Shown in pieces: positions 33,422-54,376 of a stretch of DNA of 62,762 bases. The notes beneath the pieces were generated by a model. That model made no database searches and was not told where the DNA came from. It saw nothing but the letters and a program-made list of their open reading frames with translations. A program made the position numbers and the translations under genes. The DNA comes from Candidatus Humimicrobiaceae bacterium (GTDB lineage Bacteria > Patescibacteriota > Minisyncoccia > Minisyncoccales > DG-74-1). The stretch lies in NCBI GenBank assembly GCA_035530555.1, contig DATKUR010000010.1:1-62762 (forward strand), in the 5' to 3' direction. Within the stretch, counting starts at the first letter, position 1. Each line of letters begins with the position of its first letter.

Positions 33422-33515
33422 GGAGGAGTGCTCCGAATTGGTAAGGAAGCGGTTTGCTAAACCGTAGAGCGCCTAAAAAGCGTTCTTGTGGGTTCGAGTC
33501 CCACCTCCTCCGCCA
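33422..33515 (+). tRNA. tRNA-Ser(GCT)
   Basis: GGAGGAG/CTCCTCC, GCGGT-TTGCTAA-ACCGT, long variable arm, GCCA. Confidence 0.93.
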
Positions 33516-33649
33516 AGACAATTTTTTATCGGCATGACCCGAGTAATCGAGAGCGGTCAGCGACCCGAGTGCTTATTCAAAGAATCGTCAATCAAGCGAT
33601 TTTTTGATAGAGTAAGGGAAAAATCTTAAGATAAATTATTATAAAAATT

Positions 33650-34481: not shown

Positions 34482-35226
34482 TTTAATAGTCGGTATTTTC
34501 ATCGGCGGGGTAGCGGGTTACCTCGGTTCTTTAATGATTACCAAAAGAATGGCTTTGGTCGGCGATGCATTGGGTCATGCAGCCTTGCCTGGGATAGCAC
34601 TAGCCCTGATTTACGGATTTAATCCTTCATGGGGAGCTATCCCTGCTTTATTTTTAGGAATTTTGGTTATTTGGTTTTTTGAAATGCACACTAAACTGCC
34701 CATGGAAGCGTTAACCGGTATCGTTTTTACGGCCAGTGTTGCCATTGCTTTTTTATTCTTACCGGAAAGCCAAGTTTCCAATGCTTTGATCGGCGATATT
34801 TCCAAAATAAGTCTTTCTGACACAATTTTTTCGGTAATTTTATCTATAATTGTTTTTCTGATTCTAAAAAAAATCTTCTCTAAGATGATTTTGACAAGCA
34901 TCTCAGAGGATGTGGCCAGAGTTGAACATATTGATACAAAAAAGTATAACTTTATTTATTTGGTTTGCATCGCTATCGTTGTGGCTTTGGGCATAAAAGT
35001 GACCGGTTCCCTATTGATGGGAGCTTTGGTAATTACTCCTGCAGCTGCCGCTAGGAACATGGCTTCCAATTTGTTTCAATATTCTTTCGGAGCTTTAATA
35101 ATTGGCGTTATTTCTTGTGTTTTGGGCATTTTGCTATTTAAAGTGTTTTCGTTGCCAGCTGGCCCCTTCGTTATTTTATCAGCTACATCGATATTTCTAA
35201 TTTCATTAATTTTTAAAAAACAATAG
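34459..35226 (+). CDS. Metal ABC transporter permease, ZnuB-like
   Basis: MALVGDALGHAALPGIA, PAAAAR; multiple TMs. Confidence 0.9.
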   Translation: MDLQFLYSLIVGIFIGGVAGYLGSLMITKRMALVGDALGHAALPGIALALIYGFNPSWGAIPALFLGILVIWFFEMHTKLPMEALTGIVFTASVAIAFLFLPESQVSNALIGDISKISLSDTIFSVILSIIVFLILKKIFSKMILTSISEDVARVEHIDTKKYNFIYLVCIAIVVALGIKVTGSLLMGALVITPAAAARNMASNLFQYSFGALIIGVISCVLGILLFKVFSLPAGPFVILSATSIFLISLIFKKQ

Positions 35227-35285
35227 AAGAAAGGTGTAATTAAAAATGGTCGTCAAGTTAAAATAAAAATTAAATTATTAAAATT

Positions 35286-35684
35286 ATGAAAGGATATACG
35301 ACAAACATTGAAAAAGATACCCTAGGAAACAATAACTTTCGTAAAGTATTATATACGGGAAAGCATAGCCAGTTGGTGTTGATGTCGCTTGCGCCAAAAG
35401 AAGAAATTGGCATGGAGGTTCACGAGGAAAATGACCAATTTTTCCGTTTTGAAAGAGGACAAGGGAAATGCATTATTGACGGCAACGAATATGATCTTGG
35501 TGATGGGGTAGCGGTTGTTGTGCCGGCCGGCGCTCAGCATAATATTATTAATACCTCTGATACGGAAGAGCTAAAATTATATACCATTTATTCGCCGGCT
35601 CATCATAAAGACGGCATCGTCCGTGTCACTAAAGAAGAAGCTGAGAGAAATGAAGCAGAATTCGACGGAAAAGCCACTGAGTAA
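35286..35684 (+). CDS. Cupin-domain protein
   Basis: FRKVLYT, EIGMEVH..DQFF, VPAG..HN, LYTIYSP..H. Confidence 0.9.
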   Translation: MKGYTTNIEKDTLGNNNFRKVLYTGKHSQLVLMSLAPKEEIGMEVHEENDQFFRFERGQGKCIIDGNEYDLGDGVAVVVPAGAQHNIINTSDTEELKLYTIYSPAHHKDGIVRVTKEEAERNEAEFDGKATE

Positions 35685-35694
35685 ATAAAATTCA

Positions 35695-35728
35695 AAAAAT
35701 CGCCTGCGCTTTAGCGCGGGCGGTTTTT
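35695..35728 (+). terminator. Intrinsic terminator
   Basis: ATCGCCTGCGC-TTTA-GCGCGGGCGGT hairpin followed by Ts. Confidence 0.75.
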
Positions 35729-35729
35729 A

Positions 35730-35780
35730 GTTATGAATATAAAAACTTGACACGGTATTGTTATGAATATATAATCATAA
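35730..35780 (+). promoter_or_regulatory. Consensus sigma70 promoter with overlapping palindromic operator
   Basis: TTGACA (35747) - 17 nt - TATAAT (35770); TTATGA-N8-TCATAA at 35761-35780. Confidence 0.75.
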
Positions 35781-35841
35781 TAGAGGGGCATTTATAAAGG
35801 TCCGGCCTCTCAAATAATAATAAATCTTAGATAATAAAAAT

Positions 35842-36099
35842 ATGCCAAGATATAACGGAACAGGCCCCATGGGCCAAGGTGCGGGCACCGGCTGGGGTTT
35901 AGGCCCTTGCGGAGCCGGAATGGGCTGGAGAAGAGGTGGCGGGCGCGGCAGGGGTTTCGGCTGGAGAAGGTTCTGGGGTTATTATCCCGGTCCTACTCCG
36001 ACTAAGAAAGAAGAAGTTGGAAATTTATCAGAGGAAGCTGCAATTTTAGAAGAAGAACTAAAAGCCATTAAAGCCCGTTTAACCGAACTTAAGGGGTAA
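35842..36099 (+). CDS. DUF5320-like Gly/Arg-rich protein
   Basis: MPxxxGTGPMGQG...GLGPC, GRGRGFG, C-terminal coiled coil. Confidence 0.85.
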   Translation: MPRYNGTGPMGQGAGTGWGLGPCGAGMGWRRGGGRGRGFGWRRFWGYYPGPTPTKKEEVGNLSEEAAILEEELKAIKARLTELKG

Positions 36100-36127
36100 A
36101 AATAATCTATATATAGTAAAAAATAAT

Positions 36128-37090
36128 ATGAAGATAAATTTCAATACTATCTTTTTAATCATATTTTTAGTTTGTGTGGCGGTAATTTTAATAAGTTTTT
36201 GCTATTTAAAATTTGGGATAGAAAAATCAAAAACGAATGAGGCAACCGGAATAAAACCTGAAGGAATTATGATTCTTATTGAGTCTACTGATAAGCCAAC
36301 GGGATTGCTTGAGATGGTTAGCCAAATGAAAGAAAGAAATATTTACGGCCTCCTAATGATAACTCCCGAATTTGTTAATGCGAATTGCGAGGATGTCAAG
36401 AAAGCTTTAAGTTATGGAAATATAGAGATTGTTGCTTCTAATGTTGGCGTACCTTTTTGGGACGTTCTTTATGATGAGCAAAAAACAAGAATTATAGAAA
36501 TGCTGGACGGCATTGAGTCTTGCACGGGAGTGCGGCCAAGAATTATTTCTTCAAGATATATGGCATCTGATATGAATACGATAAAAGTCGCCGAAGAGCT
36601 AGGAATACCTTATATCACCGCAAGAGGGACAACCGGAGACAAAGCCACGGTTTATCAGCCCGAAGAATATAACGTGAAAATTTTATCCGTTTCAAATATT
36701 CCTTTGGTTACTTTTGAATATGGAAGCCTTTGCGATTACTCATTTTACGAAAGAGCTGGAACCCCCAACGACATGAAAGCAGAATTAATGCGAGCGATAG
36801 AACCTTTAACATCTAAAGAAAAAGCATGGTCTGGAGAATATTCCAGGGTAACTCCTGTATCGCATACTTATATTGGAGGATATCTAAAGCAATGGAATGA
36901 TATGTGGCTTAACTTTTGGGATACTGCCAATGTTAAATGGGTAAGTTTAGATGAGTTTATGGCAGAACCGGATTGGACGATCCCATTATGGCAAATTCCA
37001 ATAAATAAAAATAATCCTTATACGGAAGAAAAAATCAGGCCCCTAGCTCCCTACGAGGAAGAGGATAAAGTTGGTAATATCTGCGAGTAA
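36128..37090 (+). CDS. Membrane-anchored protein, possibly polysaccharide-deacetylase-like fold
   Basis: N-terminal TM; EQ...I..TGVRP, ELGIPY, WVSLDE resemble NodB-type barrels but ligands are not clear. Confidence 0.5.
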   Translation: MKINFNTIFLIIFLVCVAVILISFCYLKFGIEKSKTNEATGIKPEGIMILIESTDKPTGLLEMVSQMKERNIYGLLMITPEFVNANCEDVKKALSYGNIEIVASNVGVPFWDVLYDEQKTRIIEMLDGIESCTGVRPRIISSRYMASDMNTIKVAEELGIPYITARGTTGDKATVYQPEEYNVKILSVSNIPLVTFEYGSLCDYSFYERAGTPNDMKAELMRAIEPLTSKEKAWSGEYSRVTPVSHTYIGGYLKQWNDMWLNFWDTANVKWVSLDEFMAEPDWTIPLWQIPINKNNPYTEEKIRPLAPYEEEDKVGNICE

Positions 37091-37118
37091 GATGAATAAT
37101 CAATTTTGAAATAATGTT

Positions 37119-37460
37119 ATGAAAATAGCAGTAAGCGCAACAGACAAAGATATCGAGAGCAGTGTTTCCGATGTTTTCGGCAGGTGTCCGTATTTTATCA
37201 TCGCCGAGATAGAAGGCGAAAAGATAAAAGAAACAGAGGCGGTGAAAAACGAAAGTACTGACCAGATGAGCGGAGCGGGTATTTCTGCGGCCCAATTGAT
37301 AGCCGATAAAAACGTCAACGCCGTAATAACAGGCAATGTCGGCCCGAGAGCTTTGGATGTGTTAAGACAATTTAACATTGAGATTTATTACTGTGATGGA
37401 ATAGTTAAGACTGTTTTGCAGGCATTCATTGACGGCAAGCTTAAGAAAATTGAAAAATGA
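37119..37460 (+). CDS. NifB/NifX-family (FeMo-cofactor-binding-like) protein
   Basis: MKIAV, FGRCPYF, GAGI.AAQ, ITGNVGP.A. Confidence 0.9.
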   Translation: MKIAVSATDKDIESSVSDVFGRCPYFIIAEIEGEKIKETEAVKNESTDQMSGAGISAAQLIADKNVNAVITGNVGPRALDVLRQFNIEIYYCDGIVKTVLQAFIDGKLKKIEK

Positions 37461-37816
37461 AAATAGTAATTCCGACAAATAACAGAAAGGGTTTGTCCGA
37501 TACGATAGCCGATCATTTTGGGCGTTGTTTGACTTATACTTTTCTAAATGAAAAGGGTGATGTTGAAGAAATCATAGAGAATACCAGCGAACATATGGGT
37601 GGTAAAGGATTGCCCCCAGAGCTTATGAAAAAACATGGGGCAGATATTCTTTTATGTAAAGATCTTGGTCCAAGAGCTTTAGCTTTGTGTGGTCAGTTAG
37701 GAATCAATGTTTATGTTAATCAAGCAGAAACGGTAAAAGAGATTTTTGAAATGTGGAAAAATAATAAAATTAAAAAGGCGGGTGTGGGAGATGTCTGTGA
37801 ACAACATAAATTATAA
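37457..37816 (+). CDS. NifB/NifX-family protein, second copy
   Basis: MKIVIP, HFGRC, LGPRA, C-terminal CEQH. Confidence 0.88.
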   Translation: MKIVIPTNNRKGLSDTIADHFGRCLTYTFLNEKGDVEEIIENTSEHMGGKGLPPELMKKHGADILLCKDLGPRALALCGQLGINVYVNQAETVKEIFEMWKNNKIKKAGVGDVCEQHKL

Positions 37817-37847
37817 GTTTGATTATTAATTTTAATTTAATAAATTT

Positions 37848-38354
37848 ATGGCTTTAATTCCTTCTTTAGAAAAAAATCAAGTTGAAGAAATTTCCAAAGA
37901 GGTTTATGAAAAATTTGAAAAAGAAACTGGCAAGGTGCCCGAGTGGGTTAAGGTAATGGCTCATAGCCCTAAGGTTTTAAAGGAATTTACTGAGCTTTTT
38001 AAGGCAATCATGGGCGAAAATAAAATAGAACCCTTGCTAAAATGGAAGATAGCCTTAGTGATTTCTGAAACCCTGAAATGTTCCTTCTGCGTTAGTGTCA
38101 CGCAAAAAATGTTGAAGCTCTTAGGAGCGAATGAAGAGATGATAGAAAAAATAAAAAATCTATCTACGGAAGACAAAGAAATTTTAGAATTAGTGAAGGA
38201 TATAACCTTGGATGGCCATCTTGATCAGCCAGAATTGTTTGAAAAACTGAAGGGAAAATTTAACGAGGCTCAAATTGTGGAGATAATTTCAGTAATGGGT
38301 CTTTTTAATTATATTAATAGATTTAATAATACTTTAGGCGTTTTGCCTGAATAA
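37848..38354 (+). CDS. AhpD/carboxymuconolactone decarboxylase family protein
   Basis: MAHSP, CSFC, QIVEI, NYINRFN. Confidence 0.85.
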   Translation: MALIPSLEKNQVEEISKEVYEKFEKETGKVPEWVKVMAHSPKVLKEFTELFKAIMGENKIEPLLKWKIALVISETLKCSFCVSVTQKMLKLLGANEEMIEKIKNLSTEDKEILELVKDITLDGHLDQPELFEKLKGKFNEAQIVEIISVMGLFNYINRFNNTLGVLPE

Positions 38355-38365
38355 AATAATTTAAT

Positions 38366-39238
38366 ATGAAAATCGCAGTAACTGGCGGAAAGGGTGGGGT
38401 GGGCAAGTCAATGGTCGCGACTTCACTGGCGGTAGAATTTTCAAGAAAAACTAAAATTATGTTGGTGGACGCAGACGCTGAATGCCCTAATGACCACCTT
38501 TTACTTTCTATAAAAAGAAAAAAATACACAACCGTTTATCAACCGATTCCCAAATGGGATTTTAATAAATGCACAAAATGTGGCAAGTGTGCTTCTATTT
38601 GTAAACAAAATGCCATTGTTTTTGTTAAAGGGAAATTTCCCGCCTTCGTGAAAGATGTTTGTATTGGTTGTAAGGCTTGCATTATTGCGTGTCCAACTGG
38701 CGCGATAACGGAAACTAAAAAAGAAATTGGTACAATTTATACGGGGAAGAAATATAATGTTAATTTGGTTTCAAGCGAGCTTAAATTAGGAGAGCTTGCT
38801 TCTGGCGAAGTTGTGGCTGAAGTAAGAAAATACTCCGATAAAATTAGTGAGAAAGTAAAAGCTGATATAATGGTTATAGACTCTTCGCCTGGAATCGGAT
38901 GTCCAGTAATTGCTTCGTTGGTTGGCACTGATTATATTGTAGCTGTAACCGAACCGACTCCTGCAGCTCTTTTTGATCTTAAAAGAGTTTTATATCTTGC
39001 TAATCATTTTGGGATTAAACACGGAATTGTTATCAATAAATTTGACCTTGCGGAAAATTTTTATAAAAAAATAGAGAAGTTTGCTAAAATAAATAAAATC
39101 CCAATTCTTGGTAGGATTCCTTATAGAAAGGATTTTGTTGATTCGATGATAAAAATGAAGCCGGTGGCTGAAATAAATCCAAAGTACCGGAAATTATTTC
39201 AAAAAATCATTGATCAAATAAAGCTGGTAATAAAATGA
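38366..39238 (+). CDS. MinD-superfamily P-loop ATPase with inserted 2x[4Fe-4S] ferredoxin domain
   Basis: GKGGVGKS, DADAECPN, two CxxCxxCxxxC motifs, PGIGCPV, VTEPT. Confidence 0.9.
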   Translation: MKIAVTGGKGGVGKSMVATSLAVEFSRKTKIMLVDADAECPNDHLLLSIKRKKYTTVYQPIPKWDFNKCTKCGKCASICKQNAIVFVKGKFPAFVKDVCIGCKACIIACPTGAITETKKEIGTIYTGKKYNVNLVSSELKLGELASGEVVAEVRKYSDKISEKVKADIMVIDSSPGIGCPVIASLVGTDYIVAVTEPTPAALFDLKRVLYLANHFGIKHGIVINKFDLAENFYKKIEKFAKINKIPILGRIPYRKDFVDSMIKMKPVAEINPKYRKLFQKIIDQIKLVIK

Positions 39239-40284
39239 AAGAAAAAATAGCAATTATTTCAATATTAGCGAATATGGTTCTGGCGGGAGGAAAAATCATT
39301 GTTGGTGTTTTTTCTGGTTCTTCCGCTATTTTGGCTGAAGGCATCCATTCTTTTATGGATATTTTTTCTTCAGCTATCGGATACATCGGGATTAAAATAT
39401 CTAAAAAACCTAGCGATCAAAAACATCCCTACGGCCATTATAAATTTGAGGTTCTGGCTGGTTTTTTTATAACATTAATCCTGCTCGGAACAGGCGTAGG
39501 AATTATTTATGAGGCATATCAGAAATTTTTAAACCCTTCTTCTATAAAAATACCGGTTTTAGCCTTTAGTGTAATGATTTTTTCAGCGTTGATTAACGAA
39601 ATAATGGCGCGTCTGAAAATCCATTTTGGTAAAAAGGAAAATTCAATGGCTTTGCTTTCAGATGGTTTTCATTCAAGGGTTGATGTTTTTACTTCTTTAG
39701 CAGTTTTTGCCGGCTTGTTTTTAACAAGGTACTGGATTTATACTGACTCAGTTTTAGCTTTTTTAATTGGTCTTTATATTGTTAAACAATCTTTTGCATT
39801 AGGTAAAGAAGCAGTTGATTCTTTGCTTGATGTTTCTGCCGGAGAAAAAATTGAGGAAAAAATAAGAACAATTTCCAAAAAAGAAAACATTGAAATCTCC
39901 TCTTTAAAAACCCAGAAAAAAGGATCAGCCGTTACCGCCAATTTAGAAATAAAACTTCCAAATAATTTAAAAGTGGAAGAAGCAACTAAAATTTCAAATA
40001 ATTTAAGAGAAAAACTTATGAAGGAGATAGAAAGCCTTCAGTATGTTGCCATTCAGATCACCAGCCATGAAGTGGAAACAGGATTTTATAAGCCCTCTTT
40101 CGGACAAGGATTCGGCTGGCAGAGGAGAGGCAGATTCAAAGGGGAGCTTGAGAAAGCTGCTGGAGAAGGACCGGGCGGATATTGTGTTTGTCCTGAATGT
40201 GACTATAAGATTCCTCATGAACGCGGTGTTCCTTGCTCGACTCTTGAGTGTCCAAATTGTAAAATTAAATTAATTAGAAAATAA
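39235..40284 (+). CDS. Cation diffusion facilitator with C-terminal Cys-rich domain
   Basis: HSFMD, HPYGH, HSRVD; tail GPGGYCVCPEC...C...CPNC. Confidence 0.9.
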   Translation: MKEKIAIISILANMVLAGGKIIVGVFSGSSAILAEGIHSFMDIFSSAIGYIGIKISKKPSDQKHPYGHYKFEVLAGFFITLILLGTGVGIIYEAYQKFLNPSSIKIPVLAFSVMIFSALINEIMARLKIHFGKKENSMALLSDGFHSRVDVFTSLAVFAGLFLTRYWIYTDSVLAFLIGLYIVKQSFALGKEAVDSLLDVSAGEKIEEKIRTISKKENIEISSLKTQKKGSAVTANLEIKLPNNLKVEEATKISNNLREKLMKEIESLQYVAIQITSHEVETGFYKPSFGQGFGWQRRGRFKGELEKAAGEGPGGYCVCPECDYKIPHERGVPCSTLECPNCKIKLIRK

Positions 40285-40285
40285 T

Positions 40286-40561
40286 ATGGTAAGACCATTA
40301 AAACCAAGAAAAGTATTATTTGATCCAAATGTGATATATTTCAAACCAAGAGCAGTTCCTCTTTCTATGTTAGAAGAAGTAGATTTGGGTATAGACGAGC
40401 TGGAAGCTTTACGCCTTTGCGATTATAAAAATTTGGAACAAACCGAAGCCGCAAAGAAGATGAAGATTTCCCAGAGTACCTTTCAGCGAATTTTAACCTC
40501 AGCCCATAAAAAAGTTGCTGAATCTCTAATTGAAGGTAAAGCGATAAAAATAATTAAATAG
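40286..40561 (+). CDS. DUF134-family putative DNA-binding protein
   Basis: MVRP.KPR, FKP, ELEALRL.D...Q.EAA..M.IS..TF.RIL..A. Confidence 0.9.
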   Translation: MVRPLKPRKVLFDPNVIYFKPRAVPLSMLEEVDLGIDELEALRLCDYKNLEQTEAAKKMKISQSTFQRILTSAHKKVAESLIEGKAIKIIK

Positions 40562-40575
40562 TTCTCATATAAATC

Positions 40576-40615
40576 AAAACAAAAAAGAACGATTCGCGTC
40601 GCTCTTTTTTGTTTT
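40576..40615. terminator. Bidirectional terminator-like IR at the metal cluster / island junction
   Basis: AAAACAAAAAAGA-A-CGA...TCG-C-TCTTTTTTGTTTT between convergent genes. Confidence 0.65.
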
Positions 40616-40616
40616 T

Positions 40617-41978
40617 CTATTCCTCGATTAAAGTAATTTTCTTGTCTTTATAATTCAGCCGGCTTCGCAAGTTTGCCAGCAGTTCGCGCTTGTCCGATAC
40701 ACTGCCTTCTTTTAATAAGTACTTGGCATATTGCCGGATATTTACATCGTCTTCCTCAACAAGCGCGTTGCCCGATTTTCCATTAACGATTTTCTGCAGT
40801 TTATTAAATCTTCTGATCTCATCCTCAAGTTTCTGCCTCATGCCTAATTCATTGATATTAACCTTGTCCATAATTTTTAAAAGTTCATCGATCAGTTCTT
40901 CTTCGCGAATGTATTTGTTTTTGCAGTTCCGATCCCTTGCCCGACTACAGCCGTAATAGATGTAATGCGCAGAAGTGCCGTCTTTAAGCGGTTTCCATTT
41001 TTCTTCGGCTGATATACCGGATCCGCAGTAACCGCAGGTAAATAATTTTGTAAAAGCAAATTCTTTATTTTCTCTGACTATTTGATCGCGTTTCAGTTGT
41101 GCTTGGGCTTTTTCAAACAATTCCTGCGTAATCAACGGCTGATGTTTACCTTGATACCAATTACCGCTTTCTCTTGGATATTCGAATGGCCCATAATAAA
41201 ACGTGTTATCAAGTATGCGGTAAACCCCCGAAAGCGTGAGCGGCTTATTTCCTCGTGTATGAAAATTAAGCTCAAACTTGAGCCAGTTATAAATTTTTCT
41301 GCCCGAATAATGTTCATAAGCCACTTTCTCAAACATTTTCTTTACCATTGGAGACCGTGCGGGATCAACCATAATCTGGCATTTCTTATCCATCAGTTTC
41401 TGATTAAGATACCCGAGCGGTGCTACTCCCGGCCATAATCCCATTTCGACTCTTGTCCGCAGTCCGCGTTTGACGTTAATACCCCTATTGTCGTTTTCAA
41501 GTTTTGCCTGCGATCCGAGAATCATTAAAAGGAATTTTTCATTCGGATTATTGCTGAATCTTTGACCGTAGGTGCGGATTTCCAAAAGCAGCTTTGCATC
41601 CATTAAATCCACTATCTTGCCGAGATCCCCGGCATTCCTTGAAATACGATCCGGTGCCCAGGTCAGAATGCCGTTAAACTTTCCCTGTTTTATTTCTTCG
41701 ACTATTTCATTGAAGATCGGTCGCTGGCCGGTTTCTTTTGCCGAGTGCGATTCGCGCTTGATCTCGGCGATATCAAGACCCTCTCGCTCAGCGAGCTGCA
41801 TCATCTCTTTGACCTGAGAATCAATGGAGAGGATTTGCCGTTCTTCACTTTCGGTCGATTTCCTTGCGTAGAGGCAGTATTTGATTTTGGTCGGCTGTAT
41901 TTGAGCAGTCTGCCCCTTGATACTCCCCAAGCCAGCCGTAAATGTTGTATTATTCATACAACACAATGGATGACGCAA
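40617..41978 (-). CDS. Large serine recombinase (start may be 41957)
   Basis: YARKST catalytic Ser, DRISR, APLGY recombinase domain, CGYC...C...C zinc ribbon. Confidence 0.93.
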   Translation of the reverse strand: MRHPLCCMNNTTFTAGLGSIKGQTAQIQPTKIKYCLYARKSTESEERQILSIDSQVKEMMQLAEREGLDIAEIKRESHSAKETGQRPIFNEIVEEIKQGKFNGILTWAPDRISRNAGDLGKIVDLMDAKLLLEIRTYGQRFSNNPNEKFLLMILGSQAKLENDNRGINVKRGLRTRVEMGLWPGVAPLGYLNQKLMDKKCQIMVDPARSPMVKKMFEKVAYEHYSGRKIYNWLKFELNFHTRGNKPLTLSGVYRILDNTFYYGPFEYPRESGNWYQGKHQPLITQELFEKAQAQLKRDQIVRENKEFAFTKLFTCGYCGSGISAEEKWKPLKDGTSAHYIYYGCSRARDRNCKNKYIREEELIDELLKIMDKVNINELGMRQKLEDEIRRFNKLQKIVNGKSGNALVEEDDVNIRQYAKYLLKEGSVSDKRELLANLRSRLNYKDKKITLIEE

Positions 41979-42045
41979 TCCTCAAAAGGAGTCCAGAGCG
42001 TCCCAGTTGGCAGACAGTTGATAACTTATTTCCGCAAAAACGCCA

Positions 42046-43365
42046 TCACATTATCGGGTTATCGTAGGGATCGAAGAAAATCTCTTTTTCTGGTGCCGCA
42101 TTGTCGTAAAAGCCGTAATCATTATCCATTTTATTCTCAACAAGAGCCGCATAGCGATGGACATCAGCGGCGTGCGAAGTCCAATTGTGATACGGAATCT
42201 CTCTGAACATATTTCTCTTATCATCCCACTCACGTTTGTATTCTGAAATTGCGTCAACCCACAGCGCGCATTTTTCTTTGTCTATCATTAGTCTGTCAAA
42301 CATAAATTTACCTATTTGAATTCCATCATCCACATTGGTTTTCGGATCAATAACACTGAATGGTAATCCAAGGTTTTTGGCAAAATCTATTCTTGCCTTT
42401 CCGGTGCTTGCTTCCCGAGCGTTTATATCGTGCGGCGCAAAGTGAGTTCCGTAGTTATACTCTTTTCGTCTTACAGCAGAAACCGCTTGATCGATTCCGT
42501 CATTTTCTGTTCCCTGCCAATAATCGATCATGTGTATTCTCGCCCCGATACGCTGATAAAATCCGATAGCCATCGCCGGTCCGACTCCAATATCCCAAAC
42601 CGTATGCACTTTGCACTCACGTTGCCACGGAACAGCGGTTATCCGGTTATCACTTCTTGCCCTTGCCAGTTCTTGCGCGTAAACCGCACCCTTTGCCGAA
42701 GAATTAAATGAACAGTAAAGTTCCTGCATAAATTCCTCTTGAGACATCGTTTTTCTCGAATTTTCTATTTCTTTCGGATCAATTACCCCGGTGTCATCCA
42801 CTGTCAGGTGGCAGGTAAACCATTCGCTGTCATTTTTATGTATTTCGTACAGAAAATAGAATTCGTTTCTGCCTTTTGGTGTTCCGATCCAGATTCCGTA
42901 TCCGCCATTTTCCAGAAGCGTCGGGCGGATTACTTCGGTAAAGATATTATTCGGTTGCATGCCGTATTCATCAAACACGACACCGCTTAACCCTATACCT
43001 CTCAGCCGATCCGGGTTTTCTGCGCCAAACAGTGTTATTTTTGACCCACCCGGAAAATTTACCGACAGTTCGGATTCTTTACATATCACACCTGGAAATT
43101 TCGTGTATCTTTTTAGTATGCCCCAGGCAACGCTTTTGGCCATTTTGTAGGTTGGGGCAATATATGCATACTTTGTGCCGGGTTTTTTAACCGCGTCGTA
43201 TACCAGATAATTCAACGCCGCAGTTGTTTTTCCGGCACGGCGATGCACCACAAGCACCATCCAGCGCTTGTCAGTTTCGTGAAATGGGATAGCCCATTTT
43301 CGCGGACTGTATAAACTTGGAAATTTGTCCATAATTTTAATTTTTCTGATTATGATTGAATTCAA
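42046..43365 (-). CDS. Phage terminase large subunit (start may be 43332)
   Basis: Walker A HRRAGKT, APT, Walker B VVFDE, IGTP coupling motif, nuclease WDIG and HAAD..RY. Confidence 0.9.
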   Translation of the reverse strand: MNSIIIRKIKIMDKFPSLYSPRKWAIPFHETDKRWMVLVVHRRAGKTTAALNYLVYDAVKKPGTKYAYIAPTYKMAKSVAWGILKRYTKFPGVICKESELSVNFPGGSKITLFGAENPDRLRGIGLSGVVFDEYGMQPNNIFTEVIRPTLLENGGYGIWIGTPKGRNEFYFLYEIHKNDSEWFTCHLTVDDTGVIDPKEIENSRKTMSQEEFMQELYCSFNSSAKGAVYAQELARARSDNRITAVPWQRECKVHTVWDIGVGPAMAIGFYQRIGARIHMIDYWQGTENDGIDQAVSAVRRKEYNYGTHFAPHDINAREASTGKARIDFAKNLGLPFSVIDPKTNVDDGIQIGKFMFDRLMIDKEKCALWVDAISEYKREWDDKRNMFREIPYHNWTSHAADVHRYAALVENKMDNDYGFYDNAAPEKEIFFDPYDNPIM

Positions 43366-43705
43366 CGTCTATAGGCGTAGTGATTTCAATCTTTGTTTTA
43401 TTGTATTTAGGGTGACGTTTTTCAAGCCGGTAATGAATTGCCGGCCAGAATTTTTCTTTTACCAATGATAACAGCTGATGTTCGCTCATATCATTGAAGA
43501 ATTCATCACCTTCGGCCATGGCTTCTTCGACCGCTTTGGCGAATCCCGGATCCTCGCTTCTCCAGCGGTAATAAGTGGCCTTTCCTATGCCTGCTTTTTC
43601 GCAGGCCAACAGCTGAATCGGATATTTCTTCAACTGTTCAAGCAAAATTTCTTTTTCTTTTGCCTGCCGTATTTTAATTGTTTTACGTTTTTTAGCGTTA
43701 TTCAT
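43337..43705 (-). CDS. HTH protein, putative terminase small subunit
   Basis: ACEKAGIGKATYYRW...DPGF HTH, AI.Y.L; directly upstream of TerL. Confidence 0.72.
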   Translation of the reverse strand: MNNAKKRKTIKIRQAKEKEILLEQLKKYPIQLLACEKAGIGKATYYRWRSEDPGFAKAVEEAMAEGDEFFNDMSEHQLLSLVKEKFWPAIHYRLEKRHPKYNKTKIEITTPIDVEFNHNQKN

Positions 43706-45020
43706 AAATTTTCTTTGGCTTTATGCCAGTTAATTTTATCCAGCGGTGAATTATCACCTCTGTGTATACTGGCGATTTCTCTATGACATAACAGCGTCGC
43801 TTCATTTTCTCGGCCGCAATCAAAGTACTTCCCGATCCGCCAAACGGTTCGACAATCAAGTCGCCGCGTTTGGTGAGTACCTTGATGTAGGGAATAAGAA
43901 TCTCGATCGGCTTTGTGCCGAACACAACTCCCTGTCCAGAATTTTTCTCGTCACCCGCTTTATATTCGATGAAATCAGTCGGACAGATTCTTTTGCCTTT
44001 TTCGTAGCCTTCCCATTGCGGCCTACCTGCAATGGCATACAGGGCAGTTTCGTATTCGCTCTGAAGTTCTTCTGCTTCCGGTTCAAGATTGAGCCGCATT
44101 TTCTTTGAGGTTCCGACCATGGCAATGTCGTGCTTCGAAAAGAATCTGTATTTTGCGGCAAATCCCTGCGTGCGATTAGGAAGATGCCAGACCAGCATGT
44201 TTTTTATCTTCCAGTATTTCTCAAGCTCGCCCCAAATAGTTCTAATATTCTTCCAATTTTCGTAAACAATAATATGGAAGTCCGGTTTGGCAATCTTTGC
44301 GATATTTGCCATCCACTTTTCGGTAAAGTCTGGCGGAAGAACATCGGTGCCAAGATATTTTCTGTTGCGCTTGAATCCGAATCCTGATCCCTTGCCCTTA
44401 TATTTGGTATGCAAATAATCCAAAATATATGGAGGGTCGGTAAAGCACATATCAGCTTTTTTGCCATTCATAAGCTTTACAATATTTGTCTGAATAGTTG
44501 AATCGCCGCACATGAGGCGATGTGTTCCCAGCTGATATACGTCGCCGTTTTTAACTGTGATGTTCTTGATATCCAGTTTTGCCAGTTCTTTCTCCAAATC
44601 AAATTCATCCGGTAGATCTTCAACCGCGAATATGTCATCCAGTTCTTCCGAAGAGAAACCGATATCTGCCAGAAACGATTCTTTGAAGTTTGTTAGTAAA
44701 TCCCAGTCAAACTCGCCGGTATTCTTATTGAGCCTCAGATTCAATTCCTTCTCCTTTTCAATATCGGGGATATTGAGATACACGACCGGTATCTCAGTAA
44801 TTCCGATTTCTTTGGCAATCGACAGACGGAAATGTCCGCCGATCACAACTCCTCTGCGTTCCGGTGAAAAATTTGCAATAATTGGATCAACAAAGCCGTA
44901 TTTTTTGATGCTGGCCTTAAGATGTTTTATTGCTTCTTTGTTCCACTTGCGCGGGTTGTATTCCGATGGACGAAGCTGATTTATCGGAACATAAACGATT
45001 TTTAAATTATTATTTGTCAT
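43698..45020 (-). CDS. ParB-like domain fused to N4/N6 DNA methyltransferase
   Basis: YNPRK, GFVDPI, GGHFRL; HRLMCGDST, TDPPY, EPFGGSGST. Confidence 0.9.
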   Translation of the reverse strand: MTNNNLKIVYVPINQLRPSEYNPRKWNKEAIKHLKASIKKYGFVDPIIANFSPERRGVVIGGHFRLSIAKEIGITEIPVVYLNIPDIEKEKELNLRLNKNTGEFDWDLLTNFKESFLADIGFSSEELDDIFAVEDLPDEFDLEKELAKLDIKNITVKNGDVYQLGTHRLMCGDSTIQTNIVKLMNGKKADMCFTDPPYILDYLHTKYKGKGSGFGFKRNRKYLGTDVLPPDFTEKWMANIAKIAKPDFHIIVYENWKNIRTIWGELEKYWKIKNMLVWHLPNRTQGFAAKYRFFSKHDIAMVGTSKKMRLNLEPEAEELQSEYETALYAIAGRPQWEGYEKGKRICPTDFIEYKAGDEKNSGQGVVFGTKPIEILIPYIKVLTKRGDLIVEPFGGSGSTLIAAEKMKRRCYVIEKSPVYTEVIIHRWIKLTGIKPKKIYE

Positions 45021-45059: not shown

Positions 45060-45305
45060 GCGTTGATTGATATCGACCACGGCATAAGGAGCCGCATCAA
45101 TCGGTAGAACAAAAAACAGGGAACGCAATGCGTTCCCCGGTGGTTTAAAATGAAAAAGTCCGAAAATCAAATTACCAAGAAAGCATTGCGGTGTTAAATG
45201 CAATGTTTGGCAATTTCATTTCCGGATTCTTTGCTGGCAATTTATATCCAGGTATAAATCCTGAAACCCTTAAAGTTAAGGCTTACCCTGTTTTTAATGT
45301 TCTGA
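45060..45305 (-). ncRNA. Structured 5' leader with terminator/antiterminator potential (candidate)
   Basis: Terminator GGGAACGC-ATT-GCGTTCCC-TGTTTTTT; long hairpin 45159-45226; 5' end complementary to the terminator 3' arm; TTGACA and TGnTATAAT just upstream (45313-45338). Confidence 0.55.
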
Positions 45306-45440: not shown

Positions 45441-45594
45441 GTCACCTAAACTTGCCATTTCGGCAGGCATGGTGCAAAAAACCCGTCAAAGGTACTAAGC
45501 TCGTCGTCAGAGCACCTTTGACGGGTCATATCCCGAAAGGGGTATGGGTAGCCGAAAGGCTATCGCTGGCGGCGAGCTTTGTGTTTTCCGCCAG
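45441..45594 (+). ncRNA. Five-hairpin structured RNA with 14-bp alternative pairing (candidate)
   Basis: 13-bp perfect stem, two GAAA-tetraloop stems, G-U pairs on the + strand, loop 45497-45510 complementary to 45566-45579. Confidence 0.65.
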
Positions 45595-45608: not shown

Positions 45609-45839
45609 ATGTATCTGAATATGGCGGAAAAAATTAAAGACTGGCTTAATAATAATTGGTTTAAAGCTATCAGTGCCATCGTTTTATTAACGATTGGCTT
45701 TTCTATTTTTTATTATTTCTTTTTGAGGCCGTATCAAAACGACAGACCCTACCGAGAATGTATAAAACAGATTGATCCTCGCGCCGATTTTAAAGATGTT
45801 AAATCTCTTTATTTTAATTGCCTCAATAGTTTTAGATAG
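45609..45839 (+). CDS. Small single-TM hypothetical protein
   Basis: One hydrophobic helix, two C-terminal Cys. Confidence 0.6.
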   Translation: MYLNMAEKIKDWLNNNWFKAISAIVLLTIGFSIFYYFFLRPYQNDRPYRECIKQIDPRADFKDVKSLYFNCLNSFR

Positions 45840-45845
45840 AAATGT

Positions 45846-46532
45846 ATGGCAAATAATCATTCAAAAATAAATCAAAAAGGTTTCATTCAAATACCAGTAC
45901 TTATAGCAATAATTACAGGACTTTTAATTGTCGGCGGAGTCGGCTATTTTGGCATAAAACAACATCAAAATAATCAAAATAAAAACAATAACGAAGAGAA
46001 ACAGCAAGAACTACAGGGCGATGTTGTTATGCCTGAAGGACCAACAGAAATTTCCGGAGAAGGATTTTACAGTATAACCTTGGAAACTAGCCCAAGCATA
46101 CAAAGAAGAGAAGCAACGTTCAGAATTAAATTAAAGAATTTGAATGTAGAACCATTTATTACAAATTTGGGAACGGACAGCTGTAATATTACTGATTCAA
46201 AAGGACAAAAATATCTCGCGGCTTTCACAAGCGAAATTAAGCTTAAAAAGGCATTGCTTCCCGGGGAAGAAATAGCGATTGATATCGCCAGACAAAGGCT
46301 GGGAACTTCTTTTATTCAAGAAGGAGAAATAGCCTGTGCAAAGGAAGGCGTTTATCCAAATGATTTAATCGATGGTAATTTTAAATGTATTTATAACAGT
46401 TCGGGGGAATGTGTTTGTGAAGATTTGGGAGATTTAAAAATTAATGATTGTATTTTCCGTATAACGACAGACGGCAAAATAGCATCTAATAACTGGGGTA
46501 AATATCCGCTGACGGTAACTATAGAAAAGTAA
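45846..46532 (+). CDS. Hypothetical protein with prepilin-like N-terminus
   Basis: QKG|FIQIPVLIAII class III-like signal; six Cys in the soluble domain. Confidence 0.65.
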   Translation: MANNHSKINQKGFIQIPVLIAIITGLLIVGGVGYFGIKQHQNNQNKNNNEEKQQELQGDVVMPEGPTEISGEGFYSITLETSPSIQRREATFRIKLKNLNVEPFITNLGTDSCNITDSKGQKYLAAFTSEIKLKKALLPGEEIAIDIARQRLGTSFIQEGEIACAKEGVYPNDLIDGNFKCIYNSSGECVCEDLGDLKINDCIFRITTDGKIASNNWGKYPLTVTIEK

Positions 46533-46555
46533 ATAACATATTCTTAATGATAAAC

Positions 46556-46581
46556 AAAAGCGCAGTATAAGTTGCGCTTTT
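46556..46581 (+). terminator. Intrinsic terminator
   Basis: AAAAGCGCAG-TATAAG-TTGCGCTTTT. Confidence 0.65.
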
Positions 46582-46727
46582 CTCTTACTTTTTTAATTAA
46601 TTGTGCTTTACACTATTATTAACCTATGCGGACAGGAAATAAAATAAAGAAATTTGTATCTTGACATCCCTATAATATTTTGATACTTATATAAGTAGTG
46701 ATATAATTTACACTAAATATTAAAAAT

Positions 46728-46958
46728 ATGGTGCAAGATACTAAAAAAGAGGATCGCGCCACTCGTTTTAAAAGGGTTGCGCAGAGAAGAACCGAGAATA
46801 TTCTTAATTCCCTTCGGGTTTTGGGTAATTGCTCAAATAAAAGTTCATATCAATATACCGATGAAGACGTAGTAAAAATTTTTAGGGCGATAGAAGAACA
46901 ATTACGTATAACAAAAATGAAGTTTCGTTCTTCTCGTCGCCAAAAATTTAGCTTATAA
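46728..46958 (+). CDS. Small basic helical protein (76 aa), unknown function
   Basis: RFKRVAQRRTENIL..L..LGN.SN...Y.Y...DV..IF; own promoter-like region, 16 nt from the next gene. Confidence 0.75.
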   Translation: MVQDTKKEDRATRFKRVAQRRTENILNSLRVLGNCSNKSSYQYTDEDVVKIFRAIEEQLRITKMKFRSSRRQKFSL

Positions 46959-46974
46959 ATATTAACCTTTAATT

Positions 46975-49554
46975 ATGGACTACAACAATAATAAAGAAAT
47001 ATTATTAAAACTACTATTATCTCAGACTTCTGATGAGATTGAAAAAATAGTTAATACGGAGCCATTTTTTAAAAATTGTGAATGGATTCCTTACGGTGGG
47101 AGATCAAATAATGTCGGTACAATCGAGGGTCAGATGCGAGATGCGGATAACGCGTTGATAGAAAAAATTACAAATTCAATTGACGCAATTTTAATGAGGC
47201 GTTGTTATGAAGAGGGCATTGATCCGAGAGATAAAACGAAAGCACCGAAATCGATGGCGGAAGCTCTAGAAAGATTTTTTGGCGGAAAAGAAAAAATAAG
47301 AGAAAAAAGATCGGAATTTGCAAAAGAATGGTTGCGGGTTACGGCCGAGGGAAAAAAAGACAGGCCTACAATTACGGTTATCGATAAAGGAGAGGGTCAA
47401 CAGCCAAACGAAATTAAAGAAACGATACTTAGTTTAAACAAAGATATAAAAGAAAAAATATCTTTTGTTTACGGCACATATAATCAAGGTGGCTCTAGCC
47501 CGTTAGGTTATGCTGGTAATTCCACGTCATACGATTTTAATTATTTACAATTGATATTATGCCGACGCGCCACAACAATTAAGGATAAAATTCGCGCCAA
47601 GAATTACGATTACTACGGTTTTTCTCTTGTCAGAAAAAAGTTTGACTACACCGCACAGAAATTTACTTACGAATATTTCGTTGAAAAAGATTCAAAAGAT
47701 ATATTTTCGTTCCCCTTTGATAAACCTATTAAAATTGATGATTATGATTTTTTGGAAGGGTGTCTAGTCAAACTATATGATTATCAACTCCCCCAGAGGG
47801 GTAATATTGTTTTTAGAGGTTTAAATGAATTTATTGAAAAGAAATTACCGGATGCCCCATTACCCATTTACCTTAAAGAATTAAGAGATTATAAGGGGGG
47901 TATTGATTATACTATCTTTGGCCTCCGTGAAAAATTGCTTAGAAAAGAAGATATTTTGAGAGAGGGATACCCGCAAAAATTGCCTATTGATCTTGGTGAG
48001 ATTGGGAAAAGAGAGATAGAAGTTTTTATTCTCCAACACAAAACTCAGGCCAGGGAAGATTTGAGCCCCTACATTGAGCAAACAATATCGGAAAAGATAT
48101 TTTTCATAAAAGACGGACTCGTCCTCCATACAGAGAACACGTCTTGGTTAAGAAACGAATGCGATCTTGTTGATCTTTCCCCCTACCTCTTCGCTTTTAT
48201 AGACATCTCAAATATCGATCCCCCTGTCGCTCAAATGCTTCATTCGGGTCGGGAAAAATTTAAAAATAACGCGACAACTCGTTTAGCTCTTGAAAGGCTT
48301 AAGATTTTCCTTAGTAATGAAACATTTAAAGAACTAGATGCTGAATACGGGCGTCTTTCCGTTGGATCGGAAAGCTCCTTCAAAGACGATACTTTACGCA
48401 AACAATTAATGAAAGATTTTGAAGCCCAACCGGAATTGAGAGAATTTTTTGAATTAGGAGAAGATATACCTACAAAAGAAGGCGAGGGAGAGAAACCGCT
48501 ACCACCCTACGAAGGCACTTATCTTCCAGAAAAATTTGAATTATTAGGATTAGATCCCCGAGAAGTAGAAGAAGGCTCTTATTGTAAAATTACTTTTAAT
48601 ACGGAAGCAGATGAAAGATTACTTGAAAGACGAGACGATCGAGGAGAGTATGATTGGGGAAAATCAGAGAAATTTCAGATTGCTTTTAGCTCATATAAAA
48701 GGGGTAAGCTAACCTTTCGGGTTGATCCCAACCGCGATACAGGGGCGCCCGTAGAAGAAGCTATTCTGTTTCATTTACGCGTGCCTTCAAAAAACATAGA
48801 ATTCAGTAAGCCGGTAACAATTATAGTGAAAGAGAAAGTACGATATATTGGTAAAGAATTTCCCTCGTTTTTCAAAAAGACGAAGGAATTGTTACATATT
48901 CCCTTAGGTTCGGAAAGAAAATTACATTTCGCTACAGACGTCGTAAATAATTATTTTGACAGACAGACTAGCCCGGGTAAACTAATTATTGAAAAACACG
49001 ATTTTCTTAACTTCGGAAATCCAAAATTAAAAGATGGAATTTTGGAGATAAGAGTCGGATATACTGGAGAAAAAATACAAAAAATTAATAATATCAAAAT
49101 AGCGATCGATGACAACATGCGGAATCATTTTGAGTTAATTATGCCTGTTGAGATTACTCCACCCGAAAGCGAGCCACAGCTTAAATTGCCAAAACCTATC
49201 ACTATTGAGAAGAAGAATTGGAGTAACGATACACCTCAATGGGATGAAAATTGTGTTGCTCGTATTCCTTCCTGGAAAGAATTAAAAACAATTAAAATTA
49301 ATATAGATGCGAAACCGTTCGATGAGTTGAAAAAGATGATTATAGCAGACCGAGATTCTGCGCGTGATCTCTTAATAAGACAGATTTATATAAATTCAGT
49401 ATGGATGTTTTTAGAGTTTAAAGATTTACAAGTTACATCAGCTGGTACCAATGGGAAAATAAAAGATCTCGACCCGAGGGAGGAGATCTTTGAAATGGGA
49501 ATTCGTGCAGCAACAAAAAATTCTCTCCAGAATATTAAAAAACTTCTACGTTAA
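46975..49554 (+). CDS. GHKL (MORC/MutL-like) ATPase with long uncharacterised C-terminus
   Basis: N box ALIEKITNSIDA, G1 box IDKGEG, G2-like GTYNQGGS. Confidence 0.75.
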   Translation: MDYNNNKEILLKLLLSQTSDEIEKIVNTEPFFKNCEWIPYGGRSNNVGTIEGQMRDADNALIEKITNSIDAILMRRCYEEGIDPRDKTKAPKSMAEALERFFGGKEKIREKRSEFAKEWLRVTAEGKKDRPTITVIDKGEGQQPNEIKETILSLNKDIKEKISFVYGTYNQGGSSPLGYAGNSTSYDFNYLQLILCRRATTIKDKIRAKNYDYYGFSLVRKKFDYTAQKFTYEYFVEKDSKDIFSFPFDKPIKIDDYDFLEGCLVKLYDYQLPQRGNIVFRGLNEFIEKKLPDAPLPIYLKELRDYKGGIDYTIFGLREKLLRKEDILREGYPQKLPIDLGEIGKREIEVFILQHKTQAREDLSPYIEQTISEKIFFIKDGLVLHTENTSWLRNECDLVDLSPYLFAFIDISNIDPPVAQMLHSGREKFKNNATTRLALERLKIFLSNETFKELDAEYGRLSVGSESSFKDDTLRKQLMKDFEAQPELREFFELGEDIPTKEGEGEKPLPPYEGTYLPEKFELLGLDPREVEEGSYCKITFNTEADERLLERRDDRGEYDWGKSEKFQIAFSSYKRGKLTFRVDPNRDTGAPVEEAILFHLRVPSKNIEFSKPVTIIVKEKVRYIGKEFPSFFKKTKELLHIPLGSERKLHFATDVVNNYFDRQTSPGKLIIEKHDFLNFGNPKLKDGILEIRVGYTGEKIQKINNIKIAIDDNMRNHFELIMPVEITPPESEPQLKLPKPITIEKKNWSNDTPQWDENCVARIPSWKELKTIKINIDAKPFDELKKMIIADRDSARDLLIRQIYINSVWMFLEFKDLQVTSAGTNGKIKDLDPREEIFEMGIRAATKNSLQNIKKLLR

Positions 49555-50867
49555 GGTTTTTCCATTACTAAAATATATTCGTATTGATATACTCTTTTCT
49601 TGTTTGGATTATCGATATTGGTGAATCTGCCATTCTCGGTATTTCTCCAAGGAGTAATTAATTTGTTTGAAACTTCGCGTTTAATAAATTTCACTGATTT
49701 AAATCCAATATTTTTCATTTGCTCAGCAGCAACTTGAGAATTGGTGATATGGCAACCTTGAAGGTTTGTATCTCCAATAATTATGCAAGCTTTGTGGTCT
49801 GGTTTTAATATCCTGAACATTTCGGCGAATGATTTATTCATATCGGAAAAATAATGAGCGACATTATTATAGACGCCGATATCTCGTTTTGAGAGTTGCG
49901 TAACGATCCTTTCAGCAACAGAACTATTCAGATTTTCCGATCGATGATTTTTCTTTAAACTTGTACCTATAAATTTTTTTCTGAAATTATTAAAGTTTTT
50001 TGCATAATTTTTCCACTTTTTGAAATATTTGTGATCGTTCCCAAACCATAATAATGAAAGTTGATGCAAGTCCGCATACTCGTAAGAAGTTACGTAGGGT
50101 GGGGAGGTGATAATCAAGTCTACAGAATTCGATAAGATCGGTAATTCTTTAGTTGAGTCACTGATTCGCATGGTTGTCTTTGCTCCAATTGTTCCTCTTT
50201 TTTCTAATAAAGAATAAAATTGATTATTTCTATTTATTATGGAACGCAAGTGGGGTAAAAAAATATCAATTGGTACGGGAATTGCTTTATTTGGATCTAC
50301 TTGAGGTTTTGTACTTTTCATAAGCCACCGGGAACAATTTTTTAAAATATGAGAAAAAGCACAGAGATAAAGTCGTCGTACCTTATAGTTTTTGATGGCC
50401 TTTATAGTAATATAAACTCGATTAAGCTCAGTAATTGTGGAGGTATCAAACCAGTAATTGAGCCTATCTATATTAATTGTGGGGGCTATAGACGGTGAGA
50501 GTTTATAGGTATTAATAAATTTATTTACCGAATTTTCTAGCGTTTTGGGCTTAATTGGTGTAATTTTAGCTTGCGTAATGAATTTAGCCACTGGGTTGAT
50601 GTCAAAACCATAACTCTTTCTACCAGCCAATTTTGCTTCTACGAGCGTTGTCCCACAACCTCCGAAGGGGTCAACTACTATATCCCCCTGTGAAGTATAT
50701 TCATTAATAAGTTTTTGGACGATTTGAGGGATGAACTTTGCAGGATACCTATGATAGCCGTGGGTTATGTAATTAGTTTCAGTTCTTAGCGAATCAGCAA
50801 AAGACCAGTCTTTATTTGGCCTTAGATTAACGAAAGATTTTGTGACATTGTCTATTACGGTTTGCAT
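49551..50867 (-). CDS. Site-specific DNA methyltransferase, N4-cytosine type
   Basis: YPAKF.P, DPFGGCGTT (motif I) before TSPPY (motif IV). Confidence 0.9.
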   Translation of the reverse strand: MQTVIDNVTKSFVNLRPNKDWSFADSLRTETNYITHGYHRYPAKFIPQIVQKLINEYTSQGDIVVDPFGGCGTTLVEAKLAGRKSYGFDINPVAKFITQAKITPIKPKTLENSVNKFINTYKLSPSIAPTINIDRLNYWFDTSTITELNRVYITIKAIKNYKVRRLYLCAFSHILKNCSRWLMKSTKPQVDPNKAIPVPIDIFLPHLRSIINRNNQFYSLLEKRGTIGAKTTMRISDSTKELPILSNSVDLIITSPPYVTSYEYADLHQLSLLWFGNDHKYFKKWKNYAKNFNNFRKKFIGTSLKKNHRSENLNSSVAERIVTQLSKRDIGVYNNVAHYFSDMNKSFAEMFRILKPDHKACIIIGDTNLQGCHITNSQVAAEQMKNIGFKSVKFIKREVSNKLITPWRNTENGRFTNIDNPNKKRVYQYEYILVMEKP

Positions 50868-52733: not shown

Positions 52734-52755
52734 TTATAACCATTTTAATATTTAA

Positions 52756-54294: not shown

Positions 54295-54376
54295 AAATAA
54301 GATATCTTCAACCCCTTTATATTGTTTCATTTAATTTATTTTTGTTAAAATTGAAATAGATCAATTGGTGATTTTT

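Follow-up and report, generated by a model that had tools for sequence, protein, structure and literature searches.

A terminase-bearing tRNA island of Patescibacteria that may carry its own packaging motor to helper proheads

What can a phage-type terminase do at a locus that offers it no head to fill? A terminase needs a portal and a prohead for DNA translocation. The question is raised by four genes in a 62,762-nucleotide stretch of DNA from a Candidatus Humimicrobiaceae bacterium (contig DATKUR010000010.1, our contig C10, of a 643,204-bp genome in 16 contigs that is 95% complete); this whole stretch is called the window. The first-pass annotation had described the four genes as co-oriented, tightly spaced and intact, and both the open reading frames (ORFs) and the family matches confirm this. 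We found that the four-gene block is the core of a mobile island inserted at the 3′ end of a tRNA-Ser(GCT) gene, and we lean towards the view that the island is satellite-like and would bring its own motor, made of the small (TerS) and large (TerL) terminase subunits, to the proheads of a helper phage. The core comprises four intact minus-strand ORFs:

43698..45020, minus strand: ParB-methylase, 440 amino acids (aa), a fusion of ParB_N (E 8e-11) and N6_N4_Mtase (E 2e-19), i.e., an N6A/N4C DNA methyltransferase
43337..43705, minus strand: TerS-like protein, 122 aa, matching the PHROG terminase small subunit (E 1.7e-8), with a helix-turn-helix, a helical hairpin and a variable tail
42046..43365, minus strand: TerL of type A, 439 aa (Terminase_6N, E 2.7e-11; phrog_2 TerL, E 1e-33), with a likely ATG start at residue 12
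40617..41978, minus strand: large serine recombinase, 453 aa, with Resolvase, Recombinase and Zn-ribbon domains, a predicted integrase

The methylase and TerS-like genes overlap by 8 bp, the TerS-like and TerL genes overlap or abut depending on the start chosen, and 67 bp separate TerL from the recombinase. That the motifs of TerL are kept, as had been stated, was borne out by locating the residues of Walker A (41), Walker B (129), the coupling motif (160) and the nuclease (256 and 397). The closest solved structure is that of TerL from P74-26 (entry 4ZNI, E 5.6e-15), which we take to be a headful packager. The 122-aa protein is likely TerS-like, and the top PDB matches of its predicted model (pLDDT 81) included Sf6 TerS, phBC6A51, NV1 and PaP3 TerS, all with E > 1. 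The best NCBIfam match of the recombinase was CcrB (E 5.5e-37), at 127.6 bits against a cut-off of 900. As to the DNA around these genes, the spacer between TerL and the recombinase (window 41979-42045) appears conserved in loci L002 and L110 and is a possible regulatory site (L- and G-numbers are our working labels for related loci and genomes), and an inverted repeat at 40576..40615, between the DUF134 gene and the recombinase, resembles a terminator; the same sequence follows the recombinase in L086.

The island extends from 33,516 to 55,502 (21,987 bp). The four genes of the first-pass annotation thus lie inside a larger element, whose ends, LOOT RNA and cargo to the left of the recombinase had been overlooked. 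Its borders are as follows:

33422..33515, plus strand: tRNA-Ser(GCT), the target gene, whose final 6 bases (33510-33515) form the core repeat's left copy
33516..33600, plus strand: left arm, P′
55477..55502, plus strand: right arm, P, conserved in the family, with the right 6-bp core copy (55497-55502)
55656..55743, plus strand: tRNA-Ser(TGA), a host gene outside the element, which is the neighbour of tRNA-Ser(GCT) where a genome of the same genus (G001) has the empty site

In related loci the P′ arm lies 3′ of tRNA-Ser genes of four anticodons, or of tRNA-Ala. Cargo sits on both flanks of the core within the mapped ends, and the G+C content of the core is 42-44%, versus 29-39% in the right-hand cargo. 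The order in G001 is recG, tRNA-Arg, tRNA-Ser(GCT), 156 bp, tRNA-Ser(TGA), comF and pilM, with no element between; when the element is subtracted from the window, the spacer between the two tRNA-Ser genes is 153 bp, versus the 156 bp of G001. This empty site is evidence at the level of synteny, as the tRNA end of G001 is 1 base off the core and the spacer sequences are dissimilar. Five other elements with both ends have about 29, 16, 15, 19 and 22 kb. With the ends mapped, an empty site found and the gene order repeated in many genomes, the earlier proposal of a minimal integrative element with variable defence cargo was upheld.

Joined ends were also observed. In L083, a P-core-P′ joint divides two tandem elements on a chromosomal contig of 348 kb, and in L438 there are two similar junctions 15 kb apart. 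At the P-core-P′ joint of L101, both arms are nearest to one element subtype (alignment scores against G172 of 54 and 53 of 65, the next best being 37 and 47); L101 may be an excised circle or a head-to-tail pair, and the contig is compatible with either. Judged from these sequences, joined-end junctions and tandem arrays show that the element ends recombine, and the serine recombinase presumably acts on them (that of the L083 element is 96% identical to the recombinase of the window). A separate recombinase and att-like ends speak against a terminase repurposed for excision, which had been one of the earlier suggestions. The window stretch occurs in 14 sequencing runs, three of which may be its source, with no RNA runs listed among them, and the contigs of their Logan assemblies span the element (24 of 202 loose ends inspected). 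At the right end, the X1, X3 and X5 contigs cross the core and show neither a joint nor a loose end, and X4 leaves it uncovered; such assemblies flatten depth and drop rare variants. Just outside the element, a 70-bp palindromic repeat lies beside tRNA-Ser genes (window 55503-55573 and 11002-11073), with partial copies on contigs C6 and C7, and is a repeat of the host.

If the terminase is a packaging motor, where are the other parts of the packaging machine? The earlier statement that no portal, capsid, tail, primase or lysis gene is recognizable holds for the element, as Pfam and PHROGs scans of its ORFs of at least 80 aa and of two 76-aa ORFs matched none of these families; the window to the left of 29.5 kb was covered by whole-genome searches rather than by family libraries. 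In the bacterium's own genome, no portal was detected with PF04860, phrog_156 or 154 candidate sister-phage portals, and no capsid with 1,310 ORFs downstream of those portals, in searches that divergent structural genes could all escape. The 764 ORFs of 50 element loci gave zero matches to sister portals or capsid (E 1e-4), and portal, capsid and replication genes were undetected among the 67 non-core ORFs of the five complete elements. Among 57 ORFs downstream in elements, portal or capsid genes appeared only in the three most distant type-B loci (type B is defined below), which are phages. By comparison, a large ORF comes after most of the more distant TerLs (154 loci by this rule), and 7 of 11 representatives match portal or connector families. 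The only portal-sized protein of unrecognized family in the element, of 512 aa, gave two weak negatives: its model (pLDDT 58) had no PDB match, and its Atlas structure neighbours were unnamed proteins with no portal among them. Two cargo ORFs match 'tail' families, probably via shared nuclease or hydrolase domains, and the lone 'primase' match in the complete elements was discarded, being the methylase region of a fused family. Scans of the element with Pfam and PHROGs likewise detected no AlpA, MerR or Stl regulator beside the integrase; some relatives carry an excisionase-like helix-turn-helix protein of 65-70 aa by our reading, without a PHROG match at 1e-8.

That no portal is detected in the elements or in the genome would also be expected if TerS and TerL had been repurposed for capsid-independent processing or export of DNA, for instance by cutting a circle for vesicles or for competent neighbours. 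Pilus and ComF-like genes flank the insertion site, and tycheposons travel in vesicles (10.1101/2020.12.28.424599; this and the other papers cited were available to us in part). We consider this distinctly unlikely, since no conserved membrane partner stands in for a portal (the genes after the LOOT motif vary), since TerL was recruited at least twice from portal-linked phage lineages, which fits a phage partner, and since it changes at the rate seen in phage TerL.

About 35 protein clusters are at least 59% identical to the window TerL, and relatives, probably from across Patescibacteria (the candidate phyla radiation, CPR), have ParB-methylase, TerS, TerL and serine recombinase in this order, combined with exchangeable defence and host cargo. 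The methylase is directly upstream in 21 of the 21 close loci that have upstream DNA (several of them duplicates). Of 23 close loci, 14 have the recombinase as the next gene and 2 have it beyond cargo; in 1 a tyrosine recombinase takes its place, and in 6 the contig ends before a recombinase is reached. The first-pass annotation had named two outcomes beforehand as speaking against it, portal and capsid genes in all homologous loci and relaxed selection on TerL. Neither portal nor capsid was detected in the relatives, and TerL is under purifying selection, with a median pairwise ratio of nonsynonymous to synonymous change (dN/dS) of 0.094 (range 0.03-0.20; 61 of 153 pairs unsaturated) versus 0.100 for portal-linked phage TerL as a control (7 of 28 pairs); these pairs are not independent. 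The medians were 0.075 for the ATPase, 0.086 for the nuclease, 0.083 for TerS, 0.070 for the methylase and 0.037 for the recombinase, and all 10 type-B TerL pairs among those listed were saturated. In a quick IQ-TREE run with a midpoint root, 24 of the 25 element TerLs fell on one branch among 51 portal-linked TerLs (SH-aLRT 91; a core of 18 at 100). L172 was dropped as an element, as it falls outside this clade and is probably a phage. The C-terminal tail of TerL was likewise rejected as a pointer to the helper; its pattern occurs in 18 of 25 element rows and 7 of 51 phage rows, and is not shared with sister phages.

These results bear on whether the locus is a decayed prophage that has lost its structural genes, a possibility that had been left standing earlier and is now very improbable. 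True phages do have ParB-methylase, TerS and TerL side by side (L007), the cargo ORFs of one complete element (G119) are broken up, and truncation is seen in two TerLs. Against this, the compact order is repeated in dozens of loci, purifying selection is seen at synonymous distances above 1, the shell-less TerLs form a clade, new TerL lineages have entered the slot, and intact ends are found at several tRNA genes.

Type-A TerL is present in 3 of 401 genomes of the class and the methylase in 18 of 401. The 16 other methylase-first loci comprise 9 with an intact TerL of another lineage, type B (phrog_38), 1 with type C, 2 with a nuclease-less type B, 2 with none and 2 at a contig edge; the reading that most members are without TerL was ruled out, as other TerL lineages fill the slot. 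Types A and B have no significant pairwise similarity (E 0.26). Among 60 type-B loci of IMG/VR, the methylase was found in 54, TerS in 52 and the recombinase in 37, and only the most distant are portal-linked. In FastTree phylogenies of the methylase and of the recombinase, the TerL types are intermixed, and therefore the modules recombine. The N-terminal 100 residues of TerS are common across the types, and the tail, judged by eye, tracks the TerL type; in lambda and P22 the TerS C-terminus binds TerL (PMC9611059). Import of working motors is not what one would expect of a decaying prophage, but it is of an element that has to fit a foreign portal. Three TerL-less loci (L303:2253-2909, L304:8351-9040 and L083:15382-15900) encode TerS proteins extended far at the C-terminus (172-229 aa), which may adapt them to a helper TerL.

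Where would such a motor start on the DNA, and how might it be kept silent? Three non-coding features were found:

45117..45231, minus strand: conserved leader before the core operon, a long hairpin followed by an intrinsic-terminator-like stem; candidate attenuator
45443..45564, plus strand: LOOT RNA motif (RF03000), 94.3 bits versus a gathering threshold of 46.4, model positions 1-121, located 5′ of the cargo-B operon
55334..55412, plus strand: end block of short direct repeats, conserved inside the right end

In the leader, 92.5% of the cells are paired, 14 of 33 pairs change on both sides, and 0 of 500 shuffles scored as high, with the structure derived from the same alignment; no excess of sigma-70 promoters was seen in the divergent region. 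The end block gives 2 overlapping matches in the window versus 0.04 expected, and occurs in 36 other loci, mostly elements (re-fetches of the window included), and in 1 of 157 portal-linked loci. In the sample of loci collected through LOOT (LOOT-first loci), it is present in 4 of 7 with packaging genes and 0 of 33 without, kin that are not independent. It may be a pac-like (TerS-binding) site, or merely an accessory or subfamily att feature. The LOOT motif was found in 45 fetched loci versus 0 of 154 portal-linked ones, and in 30 of 151 genomes of the phylum. As a rule it precedes the first cargo gene, often that of a membrane protein, by 20-90 bases and travels with the cargo operon; as a part of the packaging core it was rejected, since TerL is found at only 5 of 40 LOOT-first loci. 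The main text of PMC5737381 does not mention the motif.

Taken in this light, the satellite-like reading would work as follows. The serine recombinase would integrate and excise the island at the 6-bp core, and the leader terminator would keep the core operon off until phage infection. TerS would then bind a site on the island, perhaps the repeat block inside the right end, and TerL would dock on the helper portal and pack a headful. As no replication gene was detected, packaging would draw on the integrated copy, a tandem array or an excised circle. The recipient would integrate the island and acquire the defence and metabolic cargo, and swaps of TerL would adapt the island to the portals of new helpers, with the DNA-reading half of TerS retained. 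The replication gap would be closed if packaging began in the chromosome near the right end, or if tandem arrays were the substrate. As to packaging from the chromosome, 15-29 kb would fit the heads of sister phages (longest contigs 41-49 kb, which are not necessarily full genomes), and in lateral cotransduction of Staphylococcus aureus pathogenicity islands (SaPIs) tandem arrays are the substrate (PMC12829572).

Such a scheme borders on another, in which the terminase is a lateral-transduction device for the host: TerS would start headful packaging in the chromosome, neighbouring DNA would be carried along and the island would be the start point. The nearest solved TerL, that of the presumed headful packager P74-26, and the host-type genes inside the ends (metal cluster, mltG, alaS) agree with it, and in situ packaging of phage-inducible chromosomal islands (PICIs), which moves chromosomal DNA, sets a precedent (PMC12829572). 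We regard it as distinctly unlikely, because the islands are patchy and mobile (type-A TerL in 3 of 401 genomes, methylase in 18 of 401) and their ends are intact, as in selfish elements; as a by-product it is compatible with the satellite-like reading.

Several observations weigh against that reading. The main gap is replication, as no replication gene was detected in the element or in five complete relatives, unlike in PICIs. No joined-end form was found in IMG/VR with two exact junction patterns, and neither a helper phage, a circle in this sample nor packaged island DNA was seen, the contigs being from bulk metagenomes only. The TerS assignment is made on weak matches (PHROG E 1.7e-8; TerS folds of the PDB all with E > 1), and the clade support of 91 falls below the starred threshold of the tool. 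Some members have no TerL (L303, L304, the second element of L083, L426 and L428), the nuclease half of TerL is gone in L294 and L298, and in L105 (TerL 87% identical) a tyrosine recombinase directly after TerL (L105:11431-12441) replaces the serine recombinase. Finally, among the LOOT-first loci (40 fetched of 43 matches), the serine recombinase was found within ~10 kb in 25, TerS in 6 and TerL in 5, so that related islands persist without any motor. The terminase module is an optional part of a broader family of recombinase islands located at many tRNAs. Among the LOOT-first loci (L423-L462), those of the wider family (e.g., L424, L440, L441, L445, L448 and L453) belong to CPR genomes, encode longer serine recombinases, of 500-590 aa, and no packaging genes, and adjoin tRNA-Asn, Glu, Lys, Gln, Pro, His or Val.

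The cargo leads to the last of the alternatives:

33801..40561, plus strand: cargo A, of host type (metal and redox): ABC transporter, cupin, DUF5320, two FeMo-co-type proteins, CMD, ParA-4Fe-4S, cation efflux and DUF134
45609..46958, plus strand: start of cargo B: proteins of 76 and 228 aa with hydrophobic N-termini, and a 76-aa protein
46975..50867, genes convergent: 859-aa protein and N6A/N4C methyltransferase, possibly a restriction-modification-like pair
50970..54294, plus strand: UvrD-like helicase (GajB-like matches) and the 512-aa protein, with a PD-(D/E)xK-like motif by our reading
54365..55339, plus strand: second mltG/yceG gene, with 37% identity to the one on contig C16

Four genes of cargo A sit at another locus in G001. 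The 859-aa protein gives a GHKL-ATPase-like lead, as 30% of one cluster carries PF13589, and has no match in Pfam, PHROG or PADLOC, and the 512-aa protein is rare, with 8 other relatives; from their sequences, the UvrD-like helicase and the 512-aa protein are a candidate, unnamed defence pair. The cargo of relatives includes type I and II restriction-modification genes, clusters that we read as metal- or arsenic-resistance-like, and alaS. If defence were also the main function of the terminase, it would occupy the portals of invaders or fill their heads with non-phage DNA, and the island would spread by transformation or through other elements. The cargo, rich in restriction-modification and helicase-nuclease genes, would agree with this, as would the spread of related islands without a terminase; portal-matched swapping of TerL is predicted here too, and the nuclease-truncated TerLs of L294 and L298 could still block portals. 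However, the nuclease domain and TerS are constrained as strongly as the ATPase, the terminase and the recombinase belong to one operon, the end block is found alongside packaging genes (4 of 7 versus 0 of 33 LOOT-first loci, with the kinship noted above), and PADLOC matched neither TerS nor TerL, so that we consider a mainly defensive terminase unlikely. The defence, lateral-transduction and export readings can each coexist with a satellite that brings its own motor.

Is such an element already known? PICIs and SaPIs resemble it in being integrated, att-flanked islands with their own TerS, accessory cargo and no virion genes; dependence on a helper is predicted here, and the TerL-less members resemble PICIs in logic. 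However, PICIs encode a primase-replicase and an AlpA, MerR or Stl regulator (PMC10085698), neither of which was found in the element, and are without TerL in the available part of PMC13612085, whereas the element has an intact, selected one; their median size is 9.5 kb, versus 15-29 kb here together with a serine recombinase and a ParB-methylase. The capsid-forming PICIs (cf-PICIs) are alike in encoding both TerS and TerL, but they have genes for capsid, portal, protease and connectors as well (PMC10085698, PMC13612085), none of which was found here. Tycheposons and marine virion-encapsidated integrative mobile elements (VEIMEs) likewise target tRNAs, carry cargo and form tandems; some have TerS, and they have been found in capsids or vesicles (10.1101/2020.12.28.424599, PMC9618062). 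In the accessible portions of these papers, they mostly have tyrosine integrases and replication genes, unlike the serine recombinase and undetected primase of the element, and carry a TerS or capsid gene, with TerL assumed to be supplied by the helper. The element itself was found undescribed in the literature searched, which left most subscription journals outside its coverage and included the available parts of PMC12455944, PMC6509639 and PMC13059738.

A prophage or a gene transfer agent would be expected to show portal, capsid and tail genes, and these were undetected both linked to the locus and in the 95%-complete genome, in which divergent ones could be missed. The staphylococcal cassette chromosome SCCmec is also a serine-recombinase island; it sits at a host gene's 3′ end and has short direct repeats. 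The best family match of the recombinase, CcrB, recalls it, but this match is below the cut-off, and the tRNA target and the terminase module are different. The PICI-like elements (PLEs) of Vibrio cholerae have their own replication initiator and act on the motor of the helper. PLEs are satellites integrated by a large serine recombinase (PMC6002521), as is predicted here, but TerL is undescribed in the parts of the PLE literature examined, and the element has one. The host here, with its 643-kb genome, is not a Vibrio.

The satellites described in the literature examined rely on the helper for the entire motor, exchange TerS alone or make complete heads, and a type that supplies only the motor would fill the missing combination. 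If this is true, TerL-portal compatibility would set the helper range, and the islands would be a route of gene exchange and phage defence in CPR bacteria. A broader proposal, which we hold only tentatively and rather doubt, is that replication-free satellites throughout the phylum supply the motor only, keep the DNA-reading half of TerS, swap TerL together with the tail and self-package from a chromosomal end site, as a main CPR route for restriction-modification, defence and host genes. The natural swaps of TerS tails and TerL are a ready series for mapping terminase specificity. The LOOT RNA gains a genomic context, 5′ of island cargo operons. IMG/VR enters the islands as viruses (4 type-A and over 50 type-B contigs), and TerL-based virus counts include them.

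Further cargo was recognized in relatives. An alanyl-tRNA synthetase-like gene, recognized from its sequence, lies inside the G172 element ends (L308:9861-11783) and beside the joined ends of L101 (L101:1-1055), and reverse transcriptase genes are cargo of type-B elements (L333:4423-5481 and L336:11292-12407). In addition, Rfam matches to a group I intron and a SAM-I riboswitch were observed near elements in two CPR genomes (L303:391-606 and L296:15232-15344).

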